Shown here: positions 1 to 40,204 of the stretch, in pieces
How positions within the stretch are numbered: the stretch's first letter is position 1
How the letters are laid out: each line of letters begins with the position of its first letter
Notes under the pieces: generated by a model
The model's input: only the letters and a program-made list of their open reading frames with translations
What the model was told of the DNA's origin: nothing
Database searches by the model: none
Source of the DNA: Escherichia coli
GTDB taxonomy: Bacteria > Pseudomonadota > Gammaproteobacteria > Enterobacterales > Enterobacteriaceae
DNA length: 64,000 bases
NCBI RefSeq assembly: GCF_001677475.2
Contig: NZ_CP015229.1
Reading direction: 5' to 3' (one strand)
Translations under genes and position numbers: made by a program

Positions 1-3000
1 GCAAACAGCCGCTTCGTTTCACCATCAAGTGAAACGGTATTATCAGCCAACTGCATTGTCGGCTTAGCACCGGAACCGCCAAGGTCACTAATAACCTGCC
101 CGTCTATCTGCATACGACCGGTTGGTTGCTGCAAATCGTTGGCGGCAGTCGTCACCTGGGACGTGGAGGCTGGTTGAGGAGAATTATTTGAGCGCATTCC
201 CCGGGCATTAATGAGTTTGTCATACAGCCCATCAATCCCCATTTGTGCACCGAGTTGGTCAAAGTAACTTGAGTTGTTTGCTACCGGACGTGCCTCTTCA
301 ACTGGCATAGGTGTATCAACATACACATTGCCAGCTGCCGTTGCGGTTCCCCTTCCTCGTGCACGTTCTTCGAGGGTTCCCTGAACGACTTCCCGACGCA
401 TCCCCCGGCCATTCATGAATTTGTTGACCAGATCGTTAACGCCAACAGCATTGCCGATTTTGTCTACCAGACCGCCTTTCTCAAACGGGCTATCACCAGG
501 GGTAAACGCCAGGCCAGTAGACTGATCGATAACAGCGTTATCAGGCAGTGGTCCCCTCACTCCATATTGCGCCCCACCCTGTGCTCCTGCTCCAGGTGTA
601 TAGATTTCACCACCCAAATAGCGAGCACGATGAGTATTGACCTTGATCGCGTACTCACGGTTTTCTTTCGATAAGTCACCTGTGCCTTTTTTCCACTTAT
701 TGATAGTGCCAAACCCAGCGTTATATGCAGTGATGGCCTCGTTTAAGTCTCCATTGGCTTGCTTCAGATACTTGCTCATGAGAAGAGCCGCAGCTTCTGC
801 CGATTTCACAGGATCAAATGCATCCGGTTCCGATATCCCTGTCTCTTTACGAGCAATACTCGTGAACTGGAACATCCCGAGTGCGCCACCACTTAACTTT
901 CCATCTGGTGATCTTGTAAGCGGAGACTTTGCGTTAGGATCCCCTCCTGATTCAGTTGCAGCAATCGCGTAAAGAGTGCCTTCTGGAAGACCATATTTAT
1001 TCTCTAGTTCAGCAAAATATGGAGCCAACTTATCGAGATTTGCCTTACCTTCAGCGCCAAGACTTCCTACTTTTACATCCAAGTTGCCATTGTTGTAGGT
1101 ATCCGCAGCTTTCTGAATATCATTCCTGGTTCCAGTAGTATTACGCGACGATGATGACGAGCTATTTTGACCAATGGCTTTATCAATTTTCTGCAACGCG
1201 CGATTGCCCGTTTCTACGGCATTTGCATTGATAATCTGATTAGCAGTTTCTTTAACTGTTTTATTGCTATCTTTCGCCGTATCTAAGGATGCATTTACAA
1301 CACGAGTGACAATATTAGCCTTTTTAGGGGTATATTCAGTCTTAGGAGCATTGCCCTCCTGACGTTCTTTAGCAGGTGTTTTTAATTCAGGTGTAACCTC
1401 TTTCGCATCCGCTTTATTGACTAGCTTTGATGCAACCCAGGCCACAGGGGTGCTCTGAACAGCGGCATCAGCAACCTCACCTGAAAGCTCTTTTGCGGCA
1501 CTCCATAGATTACTGCCAGCCTCTTTAATGTATTTCCCCGGGTTCTTAATGAAATCAATTGCACTATCAATTGCATCACTGAAAACCTTTTTCAGGTTAT
1601 CGACAGTAAAGAAGTCTTTGATGGCGTCTAATTTTTCGTTCAGACTCTTGGTTGTGTCACTGAACCAAGCTGAAATAGCATCGCCAATCTTGGCTGTGTA
1701 ATCGTTGAATGTTGTGGATATGGTGTCACCAAGGTTAGAAATGTATGTTTCTAAATTGGTAATCCCACTATCAATGGCCTGTGCAATACTTTCCGTCGAA
1801 AATGATTGCAACATATTGCCGATATCCTCAAATCCAAGTGATTTGAGAACGCCACCAATGGCACTGCTAATACCAGATACCAGTCCTCCCATATCGAGAA
1901 CGTTAGCCAGTGTATAAGCCGCTTTTTGCTGAAAAGATGGATCTTCCCCATCCTTAAGCCCAAAGGTCCGACGTTGTGCTTCTGTATCATTCCAACCGGT
2001 TACCGCATCATAGATACCTCCAGCCACCGTGCCGACTAGCGGAATTGCGCGTAAAACCCCCTTTGCAAGTGCCTTAACACCTAGTTTCCCCAATCCCTTA
2101 GTTGCAAGTTTTCCGGCACCGCGAGTAGCCAATTCGCCAGCTTCTTTGGCAGCAGCTTTTTTCCCACCAAAGCCCAATAAGCTTGCAACTTTTTTTATAC
2201 CTAAAGCGCCTAGTGCCATCGAGCCAACTTTCTTTAGTGCCCCACGGCCAAAAATGAGGGAAGCAATACCACCGGCCCCCTTCCCTAACAGGCTAAATAA
2301 TTTGGACAGCAAGCCGCCCTTCTTTTTCCCGGTGTTTTTGGCTATCTGATCAAGGGCGCTGAGAATCTTGTCATTGCCCTCTTTAATTTCGCTGGTCTGA
2401 TCCTGAAGTTCCTGAACCGTCCGTTTTTGGGTGTTAACCTGAACGACATCGGCACTACTTTGCGATTTACGCCTAAAAAAACCTTTTTTACGGCTGTTAT
2501 CGTCATTGCCACGAATCACATCGGCAATAGACTTTCTGGCACCATTAAGCGATCCGCCAACTTCTTTTGATATCCCGCCAAGCTCCTTCCCTGCGGCCCA
2601 CAATGGACCAGCAACGGCATAACCTAACGCATCGACGGCACGAGTCTCTGAAGGGTTACCTATGCCTTCAGCTACTTTTGACAGTTTTTTTAATAAACCT
2701 GATTCAGCATTTAGACGCTCATCATCCTCTTTTCGCCTGGCCTTTTCTGCTCGTTCAGCATGGGCATCTTCCGCTGCGGCCTTACTCCCTGACTTTCCAA
2801 TAAAACGACCACGCGCATCGCGTTGGTTTTGGCTTTTTTGCGCACCGCCTTTTTGACCGAACATTTCGCGAGCGTGTTCGGCTGCTTCGGTCCGTTGCGC
2901 CTTTACATCCTCTGGTATAGCCTTCCTGCGTCGTTTTTTACCCTTTGGTGTGGTTGATTTGGCCCGCTGTTCCTGTTGAGCAACATCTTCCTGAACTACA

Positions 3001-3266
3001 CGAGAAACGTCCCCTAAATTAAGCCGTTTCATTGCGTCAACAATAGGGTCTACTGATGGCGCTTTGGCCACAAAGTCAGGCCGGGAATTTTCGATTGTGC
3101 GATTTAATGCCGACACGCTGCGAGAGACAGGATCAACAGTAGCAACTCGCCCACCTTTCAAATCTTCAACAGCTTCCCGGATACCAGCAAGCTCTTCCAG
3201 CTCTTTTGCGCTGGCGGTTTCAACTGTCCTTATAACATCGTCAATGTTGGCGTTTTTTCTTTCCAT
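1..3266 (-). CDS. Phage structural protein with lytic transglycosylase (SLT) domain, tape-measure or ejection-protein-like; partial, 3' end beyond window start
   Basis: One minus-strand frame is open from ATG at 3266-3264 to the window edge (absent from ORF track because no stop in window). My translation shows Gly/Lys/Ala-rich amphipathic repeats and SLT motifs (ATESGG, GMFQF, AYNAG) encoded around 640-1010. Confidence 0.6.
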   Translation of the reverse strand, partial: MERKNANIDDVIRTVETASAKELEELAGIREAVEDLKGGRVATVDPVSRSVSALNRTIENSRPDFVAKAPSVDPIVDAMKRLNLGDVSRVVQEDVAQQEQRAKSTTPKGKKRRRKAIPEDVKAQRTEAAEHAREMFGQKGGAQKSQNQRDARGRFIGKSGSKAAAEDAHAERAEKARRKEDDERLNAESGLLKKLSKVAEGIGNPSETRAVDALGYAVAGPLWAAGKELGGISKEVGGSLNGARKSIADVIRGNDDNSRKKGFFRRKSQSSADVVQVNTQKRTVQELQDQTSEIKEGNDKILSALDQIAKNTGKKKGGLLSKLFSLLGKGAGGIASLIFGRGALKKVGSMALGALGIKKVASLLGFGGKKAAAKEAGELATRGAGKLATKGLGKLGVKALAKGVLRAIPLVGTVAGGIYDAVTGWNDTEAQRRTFGLKDGEDPSFQQKAAYTLANVLDMGGLVSGISSAIGGVLKSLGFEDIGNMLQSFSTESIAQAIDSGITNLETYISNLGDTISTTFNDYTAKIGDAISAWFSDTTKSLNEKLDAIKDFFTVDNLKKVFSDAIDSAIDFIKNPGKYIKEAGSNLWSAAKELSGEVADAAVQSTPVAWVASKLVNKADAKEVTPELKTPAKERQEGNAPKTEYTPKKANIVTRVVNASLDTAKDSNKTVKETANQIINANAVETGNRALQKIDKAIGQNSSSSSSRNTTGTRNDIQKAADTYNNGNLDVKVGSLGAEGKANLDKLAPYFAELENKYGLPEGTLYAIAATESGGDPNAKSPLTRSPDGKLSGGALGMFQFTSIARKETGISEPDAFDPVKSAEAAALLMSKYLKQANGDLNEAITAYNAGFGTINKWKKGTGDLSKENREYAIKVNTHRARYLGGEIYTPGAGAQGGAQYGVRGPLPDNAVIDQSTGLAFTPGDSPFEKGGLVDKIGNAVGVNDLVNKFMNGRGMRREVVQGTLEERARGRGTATAAGNVYVDTPMPVEEARPVANNSSYFDQLGAQMGIDGLYDKLINARGMRSNNSPQPASTSQVTTAANDLQQPTGRMQIDGQVISDLGGSGAKPTMQLADNTVSLDGETKRLF

Positions 3267-3347
3267 GATCTTATCGCCTACCGTTTCGGTTTAAGTTTTT
3301 CTTCCAGTTTCTCCAACAGGAAAAACGCATAGGATTCAGTGAGCCTT

Positions 3348-4229
3348 TCAGCGTCCTGAATCGGTATACCCCCATACAAAACCAGGTTGGACACTAAGGT
3401 CTGATAGCTTTTCAATCCCCACCTGTGGAATGAAGTCGGTAGCCCGAAAGGGCACCCACAGACGGGTATATGCACCCTCTGTGGACTCCTTTTTATCCTG
3501 ATTTGGGCATTTATGCGGCGGGAGACGAAGACGCATTTCACCTTTATCGATGTAGCACGGTAAACCATGTTCGAGCTTTTCATGAGCCAGTCGGATGTGT
3601 GCCGCCAGCTTCATAAATTCAGTATCAATGGCCATCCGTTTAATCGTTTCATAACGACGCTCAGCCTGATCTTCACGAGTACCGCTAACATCGTTATAAA
3701 GCTCACACTGATAAGCGAATTCCCAAAAACGCAAATCAACGATCGCTTCTTTGAATTCCGCGTCGTCTTCAGGTGGCAATGCTGCACGGCGCATCTCCAG
3801 CATTTCCATTGCCCAACCATCAAGCGGCACGATACGCCATTGATAAGGTACTCCCTCTACAGACACCTCAATATCGTCAATGAAAGGTTCCACTTCCAGG
3901 ACCTGGATATCTTCAGCCAGAGCATTCATATCACAATCGTAATAATGCTCTTTACCACAATGTTTACAGGTGTAGGTGAATGTCTCGACCGGTGTTTCAC
4001 GGGAGCCGGTAAATATCCACCATAACGCGGTAATCCGGTCCTGCGCCGTCCATGTCAGGGGATCATGTTTCGCGGGTTCAGCCAGCAAGGCTTTTAAATA
4101 CGCCGTTGTCTGTTGTTCTTGTTCCTCCGGTGTTATCGAGTTGAAACGCATCGCATCAGCAATATTTGGCTGACGGAACTGGATCAATTCAGTTGGCCGC
4201 GATGGTAGCGGGAAAAGAGGTAAAAGCAT
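3348..4229 (-). CDS. Hypothetical phage-associated protein (293 aa)
   Basis: ORF track; co-directional and tightly spaced with neighbouring structural genes; Cys-rich segment CKHCGKEHYYDCD; no family recognised. Confidence 0.4.
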   Translation of the reverse strand: MLLPLFPLPSRPTELIQFRQPNIADAMRFNSITPEEQEQQTTAYLKALLAEPAKHDPLTWTAQDRITALWWIFTGSRETPVETFTYTCKHCGKEHYYDCDMNALAEDIQVLEVEPFIDDIEVSVEGVPYQWRIVPLDGWAMEMLEMRRAALPPEDDAEFKEAIVDLRFWEFAYQCELYNDVSGTREDQAERRYETIKRMAIDTEFMKLAAHIRLAHEKLEHGLPCYIDKGEMRLRLPPHKCPNQDKKESTEGAYTRLWVPFRATDFIPQVGIEKLSDLSVQPGFVWGYTDSGR

Positions 4230-4243
4230 CCTTGCTCCTTAAT

Positions 4244-4855
4244 TCAAAGAGAAAAGCTAAAGCCCAGAAGGGAAGCCAAAGAACTTGAGGATTGGTTAAA
4301 CGTGCTGTGCAATGCGAAGGTCATTGGGAATGACTTAAATTCAGTAACCTGATCTCGCGCATAGGTGACATCGCCGGTAGTGACCGGGAATACCGTCATC
4401 TCATTTTCCAGTTTGGTTAAACCGGAAGACAGTAACCGATAAATACGCACATTGAGCAAATATTTAGACGGTATATTCCCAGTACCGTCCGGATTAATCA
4501 CCCGACTTTTTGCCGTCTTAAACCAGTCCAAAACGAGGCCATCAACGGTATCCCTGACCATCATTGTTATCTGCCCAGGCGAACGCTCCGTTGGCTGAAG
4601 GATATTCCCTCCGCCGATTTTAATCGTTTCATATTCGATGCTGTAATCGTGGTAGGTAATGTCTTTGGCAAAGAAGTCTGCCCCCTCCAGTCCATCAACT
4701 TCGACAGAGAACTGCCATCCTTGCGCGAACAGCATTTTGTTCATGATGATTGACGTCAGCTTACCAACTTCCCGCTCACCAACGCCGGAGCCAAATAATG
4801 TCGTCGTTAATGCCGAAGATACATAAGACTTTACTGATGCAACATTAAGTCCCAT
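4244..4855 (-). CDS. Hypothetical phage structural protein (203 aa), possibly major tail/tube
   Basis: ORF track; 11-nt spacing to neighbours; position upstream of the SLT/tape-measure-like gene; family not recognised. Confidence 0.35.
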   Translation of the reverse strand: MGLNVASVKSYVSSALTTTLFGSGVGEREVGKLTSIIMNKMLFAQGWQFSVEVDGLEGADFFAKDITYHDYSIEYETIKIGGGNILQPTERSPGQITMMVRDTVDGLVLDWFKTAKSRVINPDGTGNIPSKYLLNVRIYRLLSSGLTKLENEMTVFPVTTGDVTYARDQVTEFKSFPMTFALHSTFNQSSSSLASLLGFSFSL

Positions 4856-4865
4856 ATCAACGACC

Positions 4866-5312
<447 letters not shown>

Positions 5313-5400
5313 TATTTCAAGCCTTTTAAGCCCCTTCAAAAATGCCCGCATCTCCTTTTAAAGCGAATTTTAAAGAAGCTCCAAAAGCAGGTCAATTAAG

Positions 5401-5916
5401 TCAACCTGCCTTTGCTTTTACGCTGTGTGAGAGAATACTTGCTTCAATTTCTTCCAAAATCTCTCTGACTTGCTCGTCGGACATATCAACCAACATCAAT
5501 GCAGCCAGGCGTTTACGACCCTCTAGTTGCAGCAGTTCTTGAGTATCTTTGTCCAATAAGCGTAGTACCGTTTCAACGCCTTTCCTTGCGAACATGCTGG
5601 TAAGAGCCTCTCGTTCTTCACTAGTAAGAAACGAGAGCATCTCAGTTAGCTGATCGCCTTGACTTAAACTGCTTTGTGATTCTTGTATTTTTGGTGGGTT
5701 TCCGTTGCCTGTTTTTAACCATTCAAGACTAACACCTTCACTTTCTGCAATGCGTACCAATATGCTTTCTCGAGGTTCTGGTGTGTTTCCCTTTTTAAAA
5801 TAGCTTTGTAACGTATTGATATTTATTCCCCAGGCTCTGGCTGCAGCACTTCTTGATGGATACCGTCTAATAAGATATGCCATGCGCTCTACGATAGGTT
5901 CTTTTGCTTGCTCCAT
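5401..5916 (-). CDS. Prophage repressor (c-like), HTH DNA-binding protein
   Basis: 171-aa ORF divergent from ner-A-B; HTH-like segment SAAARAWGININTLQSYF; position matches the Mu c gene. Confidence 0.6.
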   Translation of the reverse strand: MEQAKEPIVERMAYLIRRYPSRSAAARAWGININTLQSYFKKGNTPEPRESILVRIAESEGVSLEWLKTGNGNPPKIQESQSSLSQGDQLTEMLSFLTSEEREALTSMFARKGVETVLRLLDKDTQELLQLEGRKRLAALMLVDMSDEQVREILEEIEASILSHSVKAKAG

Positions 5917-6056
5917 AAAAGTACCTCTAGGTATTTTTCTGCATAAAGGTTCTTTTCCATCTATCTAATTGAATAGAAAGGAAAATTCAAAAATACAAAC
6001 AAAATACAAAAAATACCTTGTAATGGTACTTTTTGTGATCTACGATTTTATCCATA

Positions 6057-6078
6057 CGGATATCCGACCGGATATCCG
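6057..6078. promoter_or_regulatory. Tandem 10-bp palindromes CGGATATCCG (x2, 12-bp register) in the divergent c/ner control region; candidate Ner or repressor operator
   Basis: Seen directly: CGGATATCCG AC CGGATATCCG about 30 nt upstream of ner start; AAATACAAA-type repeats at 5990-6020 nearby. Confidence 0.45.
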
Positions 6079-6107
6079 CGCGGGTAACTTTGTAGGGTAA
6101 AGGAAAG

Positions 6108-6359
6108 ATGAGACAAAGAGAAGATCGCGACCGCGATTGGCCTTCGCTAAAGATTCAGCTGGCGCTCAAAGATAATGGGTGGTCTTCCTTCCGGGAGCTT
6201 TCACTCCATGCTGGTTATGCTCAGGATTCACTGAAAGCGGTAGTTCGTACACCGAACAAAAAATACGAACGCGTAATTTCTGACGCTATAGGTGTACCGC
6301 CAGAAATCATCTGGCCCAGCCGGTATCGTAACGATGGATTTATCAGGAAGGCGTCGTGA
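6108..6359 (+). CDS. ner: Ner-like DNA-binding transcriptional regulator
   Basis: 83-aa ORF with RBS; C-terminal motif IIWPSRY typical of Ner/Nlp family; sits immediately before the transposase gene. Confidence 0.75.
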   Translation: MRQREDRDRDWPSLKIQLALKDNGWSSFRELSLHAGYAQDSLKAVVRTPNKKYERVISDAIGVPPEIIWPSRYRNDGFIRKAS

Positions 6360-6360
6360 T

Positions 6361-8457
6361 ATGCAGTTGTACGTTACCGCAAACGACTTGCTCGGCGTAC
6401 CAGGAATGCCAGTCACTGCAAAAGGTATCCGTCAGGCGTTACAGCGTTTTGCCCATGGGCGCAATGACGTTAGCCGCCGACGTGAAGGCACAAAAGCCAT
6501 TGAATACCACATCGATTGCCTGCCAGAGGTAACTCAAAGGGCACTGCGTGAACGCTATGTGGAACAGCTGGTGGCTACAGAGAACAATGTTTCTGAAGTG
6601 AAGGTTGTTACCAGGAAGGCTCGTAATCCTGATGCAGTCCAGGCAATCGAAGCATATCGCGGTTCTCCACAACTGATGGAAGAACGCCTGAACGCGTTGA
6701 CCGAAAACCAGCGCCGGGTATCTGAAGCAAGATCTGCGCTGGTGGTGGAAGTGCTGAGGCTGGAAAGAGACGGTGATCTCGGGCGACTGAAAGCCATTAA
6801 CTTTCTTGTCGAAAAAGCCCGTAAAGGTGAACTACCGGAACGCCTGCAACAGGCCGCAGTTAACGCCAATGCAAAACGTGGTGCTAATCGCACCATCAGT
6901 CGTGACCCACTTTATCAGTGGGTGCTGAAGTACAACCAGTCACAGAACGCCGCAGAACGGCTGCTGTTACTGGCACCAGGAAAACGCGACGAAATAAAAC
7001 CGGAGGAAATTAGCTGGCTACCTGAATTTCTGGCGCAGTATCGCCAGGCGAATGGCAGACCTATGTCAGAAGCCTACGAAGATTTTGTCGCGGAATGGCA
7101 GCGTCGCCATGCAGACGAACCCTACATGATAGAGGTGATGCCCTCTTACGATGTGGTTCGTTATGCCATGAAGAAATTGCCGGAAGTGGTGAAACAAAAA
7201 GGCCGTGTTACCGGCAGTGAATACCGTCAGCTTGAAGGATTCACCCGCCGCGACTGGACAGCTATGCCGGTGAATTATGTCTGGATTGGTGACGGTCACG
7301 GTATGAAGCTGAAATGTGCGCATCCGATCCACGGGCGTCCATTCTCACCAGAAGTCACGTTTGTGATCGACGGTGGAACCCGGTTTGTTGTTGGCTGGAG
7401 TCTTGATCTTGCCGAGAACGTTTTCGCCGTTGCCGGAGCGATACAGCACGGCATTCGCAACCACGGAAAACCGTTCCTGTATTACTCGGATAACGGTTCT
7501 GGTGAAACGGCTGACATGCTTGACAAAGAGGTCGTGGGTATTCTGCCCCGCCTGGGGATTAAACACCCAACAGGTATTGCCGGTAATCCACAGGGGCGCG
7601 GCATTATTGAACGCCTGAACCGGACACTGCCGATGCGTATAGCCAGGAGGTATCGCACCTATTTTGGCAAGGGTGCTGACCGGGAATCGTTGCGTGTACT
7701 TAACCGTGATCTGCGTTCAGCGTTTAACGCCCTGCAACAGGACAAGCCTCTGAACGACCGCCAGAAAGCTGCAATGCGCGAGCTACCATCGTGGGCGGAG
7801 CTTATTGAGGCTATTCGTGAAGGCGTGGAATGGTACAACAACCGCCCGCATTCTGAGCTGCCTATGAAACCGAACGGGCGGCATTACAGCCCGGCAGAGT
7901 TCAGAAAAAAACGCCTGGCAGAAGAAGACACCGAAATTGAGTGGCTGAGTGATCTTGAGCTGCGCGACATGTTCCGCCCGATGGTGGAGCGTCCGGTAAA
8001 ACGCTGTGAAATCAAATGGCTTGGCAATATTTATTACGCGCCGGAGCTGCGTGACGAACACGGTCGCAAAGTGCTTATCAGTTATGACATTCATGACGCC
8101 GAGCGAATTACGGTACGTCGCAAGGACGGCAGCTTTATCTGTGAGGCGATATGGAACGGCAATAAACGCGCAGCCTTCCCTGTCAGTGCGGAATATCACA
8201 AACAACAGCAGCGTATTAAAGGGATGCGCAAACGCGCTGAGGAAAAAATTCGCGATGCTGAAGATGAAGGTATTCAGATTCTGGAACACAAACAGGCTGA
8301 ACCCTGGCTGGATAATGTTTATCGCCCGGTTGGTAATGTGGTGGCCGTTCAGCAACCGGAATATGAAGAAGAGCATGACGAAGAATTTGAACGCGATTTC
8401 AGACTGGGGATGCAAAAACTTTTTGCCATGCAGGAAGAAGATGATCCGCTGGCCTGA
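6361..8457 (+). CDS. Mu-type DDE transposase (A protein)
   Basis: Long ORF; ATG at 6361 follows the ner stop (ORF-track start at 6292 is an upstream alternative start overlapping ner); DDE-transposase-like core (WIGDGHG ... SDNGSGE); gene order ner-A-B. Confidence 0.8.
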   Translation: MQLYVTANDLLGVPGMPVTAKGIRQALQRFAHGRNDVSRRREGTKAIEYHIDCLPEVTQRALRERYVEQLVATENNVSEVKVVTRKARNPDAVQAIEAYRGSPQLMEERLNALTENQRRVSEARSALVVEVLRLERDGDLGRLKAINFLVEKARKGELPERLQQAAVNANAKRGANRTISRDPLYQWVLKYNQSQNAAERLLLLAPGKRDEIKPEEISWLPEFLAQYRQANGRPMSEAYEDFVAEWQRRHADEPYMIEVMPSYDVVRYAMKKLPEVVKQKGRVTGSEYRQLEGFTRRDWTAMPVNYVWIGDGHGMKLKCAHPIHGRPFSPEVTFVIDGGTRFVVGWSLDLAENVFAVAGAIQHGIRNHGKPFLYYSDNGSGETADMLDKEVVGILPRLGIKHPTGIAGNPQGRGIIERLNRTLPMRIARRYRTYFGKGADRESLRVLNRDLRSAFNALQQDKPLNDRQKAAMRELPSWAELIEAIREGVEWYNNRPHSELPMKPNGRHYSPAEFRKKRLAEEDTEIEWLSDLELRDMFRPMVERPVKRCEIKWLGNIYYAPELRDEHGRKVLISYDIHDAERITVRRKDGSFICEAIWNGNKRAAFPVSAEYHKQQQRIKGMRKRAEEKIRDAEDEGIQILEHKQAEPWLDNVYRPVGNVVAVQQPEYEEEHDEEFERDFRLGMQKLFAMQEEDDPLA

Positions 8458-8532
8458 ATAAAAAAACAGTCCGCGGGAACGGACTGTTAAACAAGGAAAA
8501 CAAAGTGAATCTGTAATGATGGAGGAAATACT

Positions 8533-9486
8533 ATGACTGATATTGATGATGTTTTCAACACTATTAATACGTTGATCAACGAGGGCGACAAGCCCCAGGA
8601 AGATATTGCTGATGAGGCCGGAATGTCTCCGGCAACACTCTCGGCTCTGCGTAAAGGAGAATACAAAGGCAATGTCGAAGGTATGCATGACAAATTACAG
8701 GAATGGTATCGGGTCTGGCAAAAAGGGCAGAATTTGTCAGGTGCCCCCGGCGTTGTGAAGACCCAGACATTTTGTGATTTGCATGAGCTGTTTAAAACAG
8801 TGCGCTCACTCGGGATTATCAGTGTTGTTGTTGGCGTACCGGGTGTCGGCAAAACTTTTGCTGCACGGGAATATTGCCGCAAGACAGCTAATGCCTGGAT
8901 GGTGACGCTTGCACCGGCACATTCGAGCGTAACGGAATGCCTCCTTGAAATAGCATATGCGCTGGAAATTAATAATCCGGGAAGAAATAAGGGGAATATA
9001 ACCCGCGCCATTCGCAGAAAACTGGGCGGTGGTAAAGAAACCAGTGGCCGTGTTAACCCCCTGCTGATTATTGATGAAGCTGATCACTTAAGTGTGGATG
9101 GTCTGGAGCAATTACGCGCCATTCAGGATGCTACTGGCGTGGGGATGGTTTTAATTGGCAACCCGAAACAGATGGCGGATGCCACCCGTCGTGGGACTGA
9201 TGAACTGGCTCGTTTGTTCAGCCGTTTTGCCATGACAAAACAACTGCGCAAAGTGAAAAAGACTGATGTGATGGCTGTAGCCAAAGCATGGGGAGTAACA
9301 CAGGAAGATGAGCTGGATCTGCTGATGAGGGTTGCCGAAAAGCCCGGGGGATTGCGTGTATTAACTCACACACTGAATCATGCGTGGCTGGCGGCGAAAG
9401 GTGCTGGTTCATCCCTGAATAAAAGTCACATAAAAGCGGCTTTTAAGGAGGCTTACAGCAACCCTAAGTTGCTGAACTGGCAGTAA
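8533..9486 (+). CDS. Transposition ATPase B (AAA+ target-DNA activator)
   Basis: 317 aa; Walker A GVPGVGKT and Walker B LLIIDEADHL; immediately downstream of the transposase as in Mu. Confidence 0.8.
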   Translation: MTDIDDVFNTINTLINEGDKPQEDIADEAGMSPATLSALRKGEYKGNVEGMHDKLQEWYRVWQKGQNLSGAPGVVKTQTFCDLHELFKTVRSLGIISVVVGVPGVGKTFAAREYCRKTANAWMVTLAPAHSSVTECLLEIAYALEINNPGRNKGNITRAIRRKLGGGKETSGRVNPLLIIDEADHLSVDGLEQLRAIQDATGVGMVLIGNPKQMADATRRGTDELARLFSRFAMTKQLRKVKKTDVMAVAKAWGVTQEDELDLLMRVAEKPGGLRVLTHTLNHAWLAAKGAGSSLNKSHIKAAFKEAYSNPKLLNWQ

Positions 9487-39257: not shown

Positions 39258-39443
39258 ATGGATGCTGTTCGTTGTAAAAACTGCAATAAATTGCTGTTTA
39301 AAGGAAGTTTTAAGCATATAGAAATCAAATGCCCTCGTTGTAAACGTTACATTGTCATGTCGAGTGCCCGGGAGCATCCCACGGAGCTGTATTGTGGGAA
39401 AAGAGAAGAAATCACGCATCCTTACAAAACCCTGCGTTATTGA
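39258..39443 (+). CDS. com: Com zinc-finger translational activator of mom
   Basis: 61 aa; [10 protein letters not shown]...CPRCKR four-Cys zinc finger closely resembling Mu Com; overlaps the mom 5' end. Confidence 0.8.
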
Positions 39444-40089
39444 GTATGAAGGCCGTATTGTCGGCTATGGTTCAAGGGAACTGCGCGTTGAAACCATATC
39501 CTGCTGGCTGGCCCGCACAATCATTCAGACAAAGCACTATTCCCGCCGTTTTGTGAATAACTCCTGGTTGCATCTGGGGGTATTCAGCGGACGTGATCTG
39601 GTTGGCGTTCTCCAGTGGGGATACGCCCTTAATCCCAACTCAGGGCGTCGGGTCGTGCTGGAAACGGATAACCGGGGCTATATGGAACTGAACCGCATGT
39701 GGTTACACGACGACATGCCCCGCAACTCTGAATCACGGGCTATCAGCTACGCACTGAAAACCATCAGGTTACTGTATCCATCAGTGGAGTGGGTTCAGTC
39801 CTTTGCAGACGAACGCTGCGGACGTGCAGGTGTTGTGTATCAGGCATCTAATTTTGATTTTATTGGTAGCCATGAAAGCACGTTCTACGAGCTGGACGGC
39901 GAGTGGTATCACGAGATAACGATGAACGCGATTAAGCGTGGAGGACAACGAGGCGAGTATTTGCGGGCTAATAAGGAGCGGGCGGTGGTACACAAATTTA
40001 ATCAGTATCGCTACATCAGATTCCTGAACAAGCGCGCAAAAAAGCGATTAAATACCAAGCTATTCAGGATTCAGCCATACCCGAAGTGA
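39394..40089 (+). CDS. mom: Mom DNA-modification protein (anti-restriction)
   Basis: Frame open from 39352; start placed at GTG 39394 (231 aa, start uncertain); last gene before the prophage right end as in Mu. Confidence 0.7.
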
Positions 40090-40154
40090 TCTCACTTAAT
40101 GAATAAAAAAGCAGCGGCCAATGCCGCTGTTTCGTTTGAAGCGCGAAAATTAAA

Positions 40155-40204
40155 GTTTTCGCATTTATCGTGAAACGTTTTCGCGTTTTTCGTGCGCCGC
40201 TTCA
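40155..40204. repeat. Prophage right terminus (Mu attR-like transposase binding sites, ends ...GCGCCGCTTCA)
   Basis: Reverse complement reads TGAAGCGGCGCACGAAAAACGCGAAAACGTTTCACGATAAATGCGAAAAC, nearly identical to my recollection of the canonical Mu right end. Confidence 0.7.

Follow-up and report, generated by a model that had tools for sequence, protein, structure and literature searches.

How the 191 bp between a leftward repressor gene and the rightward ner-A-B genes (5917-6107) are divided among promoters and protein-binding sites is the question raised by this locus, which lies in a 64,000-nucleotide stretch of Escherichia coli DNA (the window) near the left end of a Mu-like prophage. 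An earlier, sequence-only reading had taken the gap for a divergent c/ner control region with two tandem palindromes just upstream of ner and A-rich repeats near the repressor start, arranged as overlapping early and repressor promoters with operators. Comparison of the window with related loci supports that reading with some refinements and suggests, with a probability of roughly 80 per cent, that 5917-6107 is the bidirectional immunity and early control region by which this E. coli prophage, a transposable one of the Mu type, decides between lysis and lysogeny. The genes and sites that frame it are as follows:

5155-5300, plus strand: attL, the left end of the Mu-like prophage, which begins with TG at 5155.
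5382-5414, minus strand: hairpin resembling a terminator (14 pairs, of which 5 are G-C, followed by a T run), at the 3' end of the repressor gene.
5401-5916, minus strand: immunity repressor gene (171 aa, helix-turn-helix near residues 20-45).
6108-6359, plus strand: ner-like gene (83 aa; PF13693, 1e-13).
6361-8457, plus strand: MuA-like transposase gene (Pfam Mu-transpos_C, HTH_Tnp_Mu_1, rve).
8533-9486, plus strand: MuB-like ATPase gene (Pfam Phage-MuB_C).

Three direct TTCAAGATA repeats in attL (at 5170, 5241 and 5292) are presumed transposase-binding sites. Homology to P1 ends at 5152, just outside the prophage left end, and this end adjoins narI in E. coli FDAARGOS_943. Searching for the right end with the left-end inverted repeats gave no match; a Mu-type right end, ...GCGCCGCTTCA, was located at 40204 via homology to SfMu com/mom. 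The gap, at the left end of the transposable prophage, is placed between attL and the ner-A-B genes, and the ner, MuA-like and MuB-like genes (6108-9486) would constitute an early operon driven by a predicted promoter, Pe (see below). Mu has the same arrangement, with divergent repressor and ner-A-B genes just inside attL and an intergenic region of 169 bp, compared with 191 bp here.

The identification of ner was borne out, since the product matched, besides PF13693, the structure of Mu Ner (1NEQ, 3.6e-7). The two proteins are 35% identical and share fifteen invariant columns (pattern DW...LS..G...PExIWPSRY), the conserved PExIWPSRY tail being present here too, but the recognition helix of the window's Ner, AQDSLKAVV, is unlike that of Mu Ner. 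The divergent gene does encode a phage repressor, as had been proposed (phrog_3037, 'transcriptional repressor', 8e-53), but not a homologue of Mu c: BLASTP gave E = 0.4 against Mu c and no alignment with SfMu/D108-type c, and the SfMu repressor has no similarity to the one here. Mu c is homologous to the N-terminal domain of the transposase (PF02316) and shares sites with it, whereas the repressor of the window had no PF02316 match and gave E = 55 in BLASTP against the N-terminus of the prophage's own transposase. Pfam and NCBIfam returned for it only weak matches to generic or CI-repressor HTH families, a peptidase S24 (LexA-like cleavage) domain was not detected, and no related solved structure was found. 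All repressors of the family that were compared share a putative recognition helix, (N/S)T(L/I)xxY.

BLAST and pattern scans yielded 17 non-redundant versions of the region. They come from three E. coli prophages, a Mu-like element in an Stx phage, IMG/VR contigs, and species-representative genomes of Serratia, Erwinia, Mixta, Izhakiella, Buttiauxella, Pantoea and Edwardsiella. In the representative genomes Ner is at most 54% identical to that of the window, and prophages of E. coli account for all the close relatives.

The promoter prediction that had been suggested as a check was performed with a sigma-70 weight matrix calibrated on Mu, where the annotated Pe and a second promoter over the ner start were the top matches on their respective strands. 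The top plus-strand match in the window was:

6018-6046, plus strand: predicted early promoter Pe, with -35 TTGTAA at 6018-6023, a 17-bp spacer and -10 TACGAT at 6041-6046.

A stricter consensus scan missed Pe, since this promoter agrees with the consensus at just 8 of 12 positions. The best plus-strand match was nevertheless found at the homologous position in 15 of the 17 relatives (for example TTGACT-17-TATGAT in L012 and TTGACA-17-TATGCT in L087), its -10 element ending 58-62 bp before the ner ATG, so that a conserved sigma-70 promoter for ner was indeed obtained. Early transcription would start near 6053-6054. Pe sits between two sets of repeats, the A-rich ones on its left and the palindromes on its right.

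The two perfect 10-bp palindromes can be read directly from the sequence: CGGATATCCG occurs at 6057-6066 and again at 6069-6078, 12 bp from start to start, and CGGATATCCG-AC-CGGATATCCG as a whole is one perfect 22-bp palindrome (6057-6078), located at about +5 to +26 of the predicted early transcript. Weaker flanking units keep the 12-bp register (TTTTATCC at 6046 and GGGTAACT at 6082). Alignment of the relatives suggests that the palindromes are the inner units, U2 and U3, of a five-unit array starting at the presumed transcription start:

6046-6101 (about 56 bp), no strand assigned: putative Ner operator array, five units with a 12-bp period.
6048-6053: unit U1, TTATCC.
6058-6065: unit U2, GGATATCC.
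6070-6077: unit U3, GGATATCC.
6082-6088: unit U4, GGGTAAC.
6094-6100: unit U5, AGGGTAA.

In the alignment from the -35 element to the ner ATG, which is free of indels in 16 of 17 sequences, the invariant columns lie within the GATA/TATC cores 12 bp apart. The family consensus of the inner pair is the inverted repeat GATAACC-N4-GGTTATC (written aGATAACC-N4-GGTTATCC); in the subclade of the window both arms are altered to GATATCC/GGATATC, which makes each unit palindromic in itself.

Could the palindromes be a chance pair of EcoRV-type (GATATC) sequences without function? The exact tandem motif has 60 matches in IMG/VR, and 56 of these have no ner gene nearby and lie mostly inside coding repeats; with just 4 of the 60 adjoining ner, the motif by itself was rejected as a marker of ner genes. 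Those 56 matches speak for coincidence. On the other side, the 64-kb window has four occurrences of GGATATCC where 0.56 would be expected. When the 191-bp intergenic region was shuffled 20,000 times with its dinucleotides preserved, the tandem arrangement never came up, and an 8-bp palindrome of any sequence recurring within 20 bp came up 38 times. Position and period of the array are conserved in the 17 relatives, from at least nine genera, most of which carry GATAAC in their units and not an EcoRV site. The probability left to chance is negligible, and conservation effectively refutes it.

A second possibility is that the U2/U3 dyad acts mainly at the RNA level, as a 5' stem-loop that stabilises the early mRNA or modulates ner translation, perhaps coexisting with an operator. 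In a fold of the RNA from 6053-6115 the two palindromes pair as a 9-bp stem (about -14 kcal/mol), and the dyad is kept in 82.6% of alignment cells, as compared with 25-59% for slid partners. One dyad position is changed on both sides, being A:T in 8 sequences and T:A in 6, a compensatory change that may represent one or two evolutionary events; dyad symmetry of this kind is equally expected of a hairpin. The fold, however, is no better than those of shuffled sequences (z = -1.4; 18 of 200 fold as well), the helix is absent from the RNAalifold consensus, and Rfam gave no match. Moreover, the units are direct and not inverted repeats in L011 and in the Vitreoscilla locus L109, U1, U4 and U5 are conserved at the same 12-bp period outside the stem, and at the same position Mu and D108 have proven protein operators. 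A primarily RNA-level role is on this evidence improbable.

That the unit array is the operator of Ner is supported by the way in which the elements are inherited. In L002 and L005 Ner is 99-100% identical to that of the window and the palindromes are identical, while L002 has different left-hand repeats and a repressor of just 42% identity; the left-hand region of L005 is the same as in L002. L004 shows the converse: its repressor has 67% identity and its AAAATACC repeats are unchanged, but Ner identity is 53% and the units are variant. These exchanges support co-inheritance of the palindromes with ner and of the A-rich repeats with the module on the repressor side. They also bear on the proposal that the palindromes serve the immunity repressor, and not Ner, as a third, autoregulatory operator. 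The proposal has a precedent in the weak operator O3 of Mu, which overlaps the Ner site. Here, no AAARWAC half-site of the type discussed below was found in 6040-6107, and the palindromes stay identical with repressors that are 42% identical and vary with Ner, which makes an O3-like role very unlikely.

Among the Ner loci the recognition helix goes with the motif, in a purely qualitative correlation. A DSLK helix accompanies GATAAC/GATATC units, the distant locus L109 included, the Mu-like STLANAL helix accompanies CTTAG/CTAAG repeats, and a DTLRNAL helix accompanies CCGATAA-N10-TTATCGG. The observation of the sequence-only reading that the operators differ from those of Mu holds, and the comparison was extended to D108: as against CGGATATCCG-N2-CGGATATCCG here, the Mu Ner site is AGCTAGCTAAGT-N6-ACTTAGTTAAAT, and the D108/SfMu site, in the same place but of different sequence, is CCGTGAGCTAC-N8-GTAGCTCACGG, a perfect inverted repeat with 19 bp from centre to centre instead of 12. 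Both known sites follow directly on the -10 element of Pe, like the palindromes here; the dyad-symmetric site of Mu begins within a few bp of the Pe start, as here, and is placed between two facing start points. Mu Ner, like the proteins of its family in general, is monomeric, and it represses both Pe and the repressor promoter. The D108 Ner operator is reported to be 61 bp long, which is comparable to the 56-bp array.

The Ner of the window also belongs to the same fold family as EnrR of Edwardsiella piscicida (PDB 7F9H/7F9I; E = 1.8e-5 against 7F9H). EnrR differs from it in being encoded on an island in the chromosome and in acting as a global regulator, with AT-rich DNA as its target. The base-contacting residues His29, Arg40, Arg47 and Arg55 of EnrR align with Lys21, Leu33, Asp40 and Thr48 of the window's Ner, and with these replacements a different specificity is to be expected. 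In the EnrR-DNA crystal structure two monomers are packed on the short continuous palindrome CTATAG (PMC9023278), so that an 8-bp self-palindrome such as GGATATCC could by itself be a complete site.

On the left of Pe, A-rich repeats of the AAATACAAA type do occur at 5990-6017, but they are not near the repressor start, as had been stated: they lie 74-100 bp from the start codon (5916) and abut the -35 element of Pe. Two copies of AAATACAAA (5991-5999 and 6002-6010) are followed by a third, partial one, AAATACC (6011-6017). Written as AAARTAC, the motif has six sites in 5918-6032 against 0.18 expected (none of 20,000 shuffles had as many), and four of these form two inverted pairs, 5918-5937 and 6010-6032, which are 93 bp apart:

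5917-5938, inverted repeat Oc: AAAAGTACC-TCTA-GGTATTTTT, half-sites AAAGTAC/AAAATAC separated by N6.
5990-6016, plus strand: three direct AAAATAC copies at 5990, 6001 and 6010, corresponding to the AAATACAAA repeats.
6006-6036, inverted repeat Oe: ACAAAAAATACC-TTGTAAT-GGTACTTTTTGT, 12-nt arms, 92% complementary.

The core of Oe, AAAATACC-TTGTAAT-GGTACTTT at 6010-6032, consists of the half-sites AAAATAC/AAAGTAC separated by N9 and straddles the -35 element of Pe; the AAAATAC copy at 6010 is its left half, and those at 5990 and 6001 are outlying. A terminator-like match on the minus strand (6036-6006) was discarded, being merely the Oe inverted repeat beside a T run. Oc covers the Shine-Dalgarno sequence of the repressor (GAGG, 5927-5924, minus strand) and abuts its ATG. 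Across the family the Oe pair is located at -97/-80 from the ner ATG, and the Oc pair at -190/-177 in 14 of the 17 relatives, being partial or shifted in the other three (L004, L085 and L090). The spacings are constant (N6 for Oc and N9 for Oe), and the relatives carry one or two additional half-site-like copies in the region corresponding to 5990-6016.

From their geometry, position and linkage to the repressor module, the AAARWAC pairs are putative repressor sites. We also examined a possible immunity code, in which the half-site type (ATAC or GAAC) would follow the HTH class of the repressor (SAAARAWG...SYF or SEAARAWG...NYY), and rejected it, as the types are mixed across classes. Since the ATAC and GAAC variants do not sort by HTH class, the assignment to the repressor rests on position and on analogy.

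The same repeats, which share a CTTTT core, could alternatively be a transposition enhancer to which the MuA-like protein binds through its N-terminal domain, or an A-tract/UP-like element that stimulates Pe, instead of or in addition to being repressor operators. In Mu this domain of the transposase binds the operator region. The transposase of the window has a Mu-type N-terminal DNA-binding domain (PF02316, 7e-7), the Mu operator sites have the CTTTT core and likewise flank the -35 element of Pe, and AAAGAA(C/A) repeats keep their positions in relatives whose repressor HTH is only 26-30% identical (L085, L090, L092 and L093). Inverted pairs placed exactly over a -35 element and over the ribosome-binding site of the repressor, however, are classic repressor geometry. 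Furthermore, between the window and L002 the left-hand repeats change with the repressor module while ner and A are constant, and the (N/S)T(L/I)xxY helix common to all these repressors would explain the shared core. We consider the enhancer or UP explanation unlikely, if less so than the RNA hairpin. In Mu an IHF site lies between the operators. Perfect matches to the IHF consensus WATCAANNNNTTR were found only at 5215-5227 (in attL) and 5809-5821, and 5917-6107 contains none with up to one mismatch.

Two leftward promoters can be proposed for the repressor gene, whose present start codon appears to have replaced an upstream one:

6116-6087, minus strand: weak candidate distal repressor promoter, -35 TTGTCT at 6116-6111, 18-bp spacer, -10 CAAAGT at 6092-6087.
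5990-5962, minus strand: weak candidate proximal repressor promoter, -35 TTGAAT at 5990-5985, 17-bp spacer, -10 TAGATA at 5967-5962.
5942-5955, minus strand: vestigial upstream start, ATG at 5944-5942 (MQKNT, then stop), with the old Shine-Dalgarno sequence/half-site GGTTCTTT at 5948-5955.

The distal candidate, with a start near 6080, scores 7.1 in the window and 9.2 at the same place in L002, L003 and L009; the leftward matches of the remaining relatives are in a different register. Its geometry is equivalent to that of the leftward promoter of Mu over the ner start, and it would face Pe with the core of the Ner array between the two starts. The proximal candidate scores 7.2, with a start near 5955, and in the relatives leftward matches occur at various positions between -126 and -146 from the ner ATG. 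Of the layout with overlapping promoters, the conserved Pe could thus be established as a prediction, whereas its leftward counterparts are weak and not consistently conserved; that the early and repressor promoters overlap would follow from the analogy with Mu. Relatives begin repressor translation at the position of the vestigial ATG (5944), and in most of them the Oc pair is inside the first nine codons of the repressor (MxKE...GSF), an extension that has been lost in the window. The left part of the intergenic region also contains a conserved box, TATC(T/C)AATTGAA, at 5962-5975; it was tried as a -10 element, a -35 element and an IHF site, and no assignment was obtained.

In the mechanism that we propose, the repressor (5401-5916) would bind AAARWAC half-sites arranged as two inverted pairs. 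Bound at Oe (6006-6036), it would clamp the -35 element of Pe and keep the early operon off in the lysogen, supplemented by the extra direct half-sites at 5990 and 6001; Oc, over the repressor's own ribosome-binding site and 93 bp from Oe, would probably serve autoregulation or looping. Ner made from the first early transcripts would bind all five GGWTAWCC-like units of the 12-bp-period array (6046-6101), damp early transcription and prevent leftward transcription of the repressor gene, leading to lytic commitment as with Mu Ner. In the lambda OR switch (CI/Cro), too, the repressor and anti-repressor genes diverge and operators overlap the two diverging promoters, but its two proteins use the same three 17-bp operators, whereas here two unrelated motif families lie on either side of Pe.

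The region is an ordinary Mu-type early control region, in which the sequence of the putative Ner operator is distinct and the repressor belongs to a family other than that of Mu c, and it leaves the general understanding of such switches unchanged. What it adds is a proposed operator map for a Mu-like lineage, with one early promoter, GGWTAWCC units at a 12-bp period and AAARWAC pairs 93 bp apart. It also adds a small natural data set linking recognition helices of the Ner family to motifs, which could help to predict the targets of Ner-like regulators encoded in chromosomes, SfsB and EnrR among them. Two bolder readings, separate from each other, are speculative and on balance doubtful. In the first, Ner of this lineage would dispense with a simple dimer operator: monomers, paired in the manner of EnrR, would occupy each 8-bp quasi-palindrome and polymerise along the five units of the array, and the resulting nucleoprotein filament of about 56 bp, reaching from the early start to the ner ribosome-binding site, would control two facing promoters. 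In the second, the AAARWAC repeats would double as a transposition enhancer although the repressor is not related to the transposase, and competition of these two proteins for the same DNA would have arisen by convergence and not, as in Mu, by shared ancestry.

The lineage is represented in nine or more genera of Enterobacterales, and phages of Yersinia and Pseudomonas that are in culture belong to it. vB_YpM_Tongde (Yersinia) and VW-6B (Pseudomonas fluorescens host), for the control regions of which we found no published analysis in the searchable literature, carry the same region, with the same repressor family, Pe position and AAARWAC pairs and a DSLK-type Ner. Their 12-bp array reads GGATAACC-gcgc-GGTTATCC..., the inner units being GATAACC/GGTTATC, which are not palindromic in themselves.

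The two inverted pairs of the half-site AAARWAC that we take as putative repressor sites, Oc (5917-5938) and Oe (6006-6036), are separated by a constant distance of approximately 93 bp, or about nine helical turns, throughout the family. This separation holds both where the left pair is part of a coding sequence and where it is non-coding, and its constancy is compatible with looping or with cooperative binding of the putative repressor pairs. The coding state of the left pair can be followed at the old repressor start (5942-5955). In most relatives (L003, L089, L087 and others) the ATG homologous to position 5944 is the translation start of the repressor, and the first nine codons (MxKE...GSF) coincide with the inverted repeat AAAGAAC-N6-GTTCTTT. 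Because these codons and the repeat are the same DNA, the N-terminal peptide of the relatives' repressors appears to be constrained by the DNA site. In the window the ATG at 5944 would now give MQKNT followed by a stop codon, and is a vestigial repressor start.

Between Oc and Oe lies the box TATC(T/C)AATTGAA (5962-5975), which is kept at the homologous position in relatives, including those in which the neighbouring sequence and the repressor diverge; it could not be assigned as a -10, -35 or IHF site. The IHF site of Mu is intergenic, whereas the intergenic region of this prophage contains no perfect match to the IHF consensus. Perfect matches were found at two other places:

5215-5227, in attL, between the first and second presumed transposase-binding repeats
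5809-5821, approximately 100 bp into the repressor coding region

In the Ner family, represented by ner/sfsB-like genes at loci L016-L023 and L097-L162, the upstream repeat motif follows the recognition helix:

helix STLANAL, upstream motif CTTAG/CTAAG
helix DSLK, upstream motif GATAAC
helix DTLRNAL, upstream motif CCGATAA-N10-TTATCGG
helix RTLNNAL, upstream motif GAATAACAC-N4-GTGTTATTC

These pairings could serve as the seed of a recognition code for Ner-like regulators. Tandem GGATATCC repeats also occur, in intergenic-looking positions, in high-GC viral contigs of IMG/VR, for example as GTGGATATCCACGTGGATATCCACACG with a third copy close by:

L033, 6285-6304
L084, 7868-7887
L038, 9645-9664

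No ner gene was detected around these repeats in the DNA segments retrieved.

The prophage is a mosaic, its two ends differing in affinity. The right end (39268-40204), which carries com/mom and whose terminus ...CGTTTTTCGTGCGCCGCTTCA ends as that of Mu does, is 88.6% identical to SfMu, whereas in the left end (5155-8457) no similarity of the immunity region to Mu or SfMu was detectable. The flanks of the prophage (5155-40204) are mismatched. The left flank (1-5152) carries late genes resembling those of P1 (sit, pmgB, tub and pmgC, the last cut off at 5152), with 96-98% identity to P1 and phi456; the right flank (40205-64000) is E. coli chromosomal T6SS vgrG/rhs DNA, with 99.3% identity. The bordering 5-mers, ATATA and GCGAT, are unequal, and therefore the prophage is not a simple insertion. 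Two origins are suggested by this mismatch: a P1-like plasmid-prophage may have become joined to the chromosome in a Mu-mediated replicon fusion, or the assembly may have been joined across two copies of the prophage.
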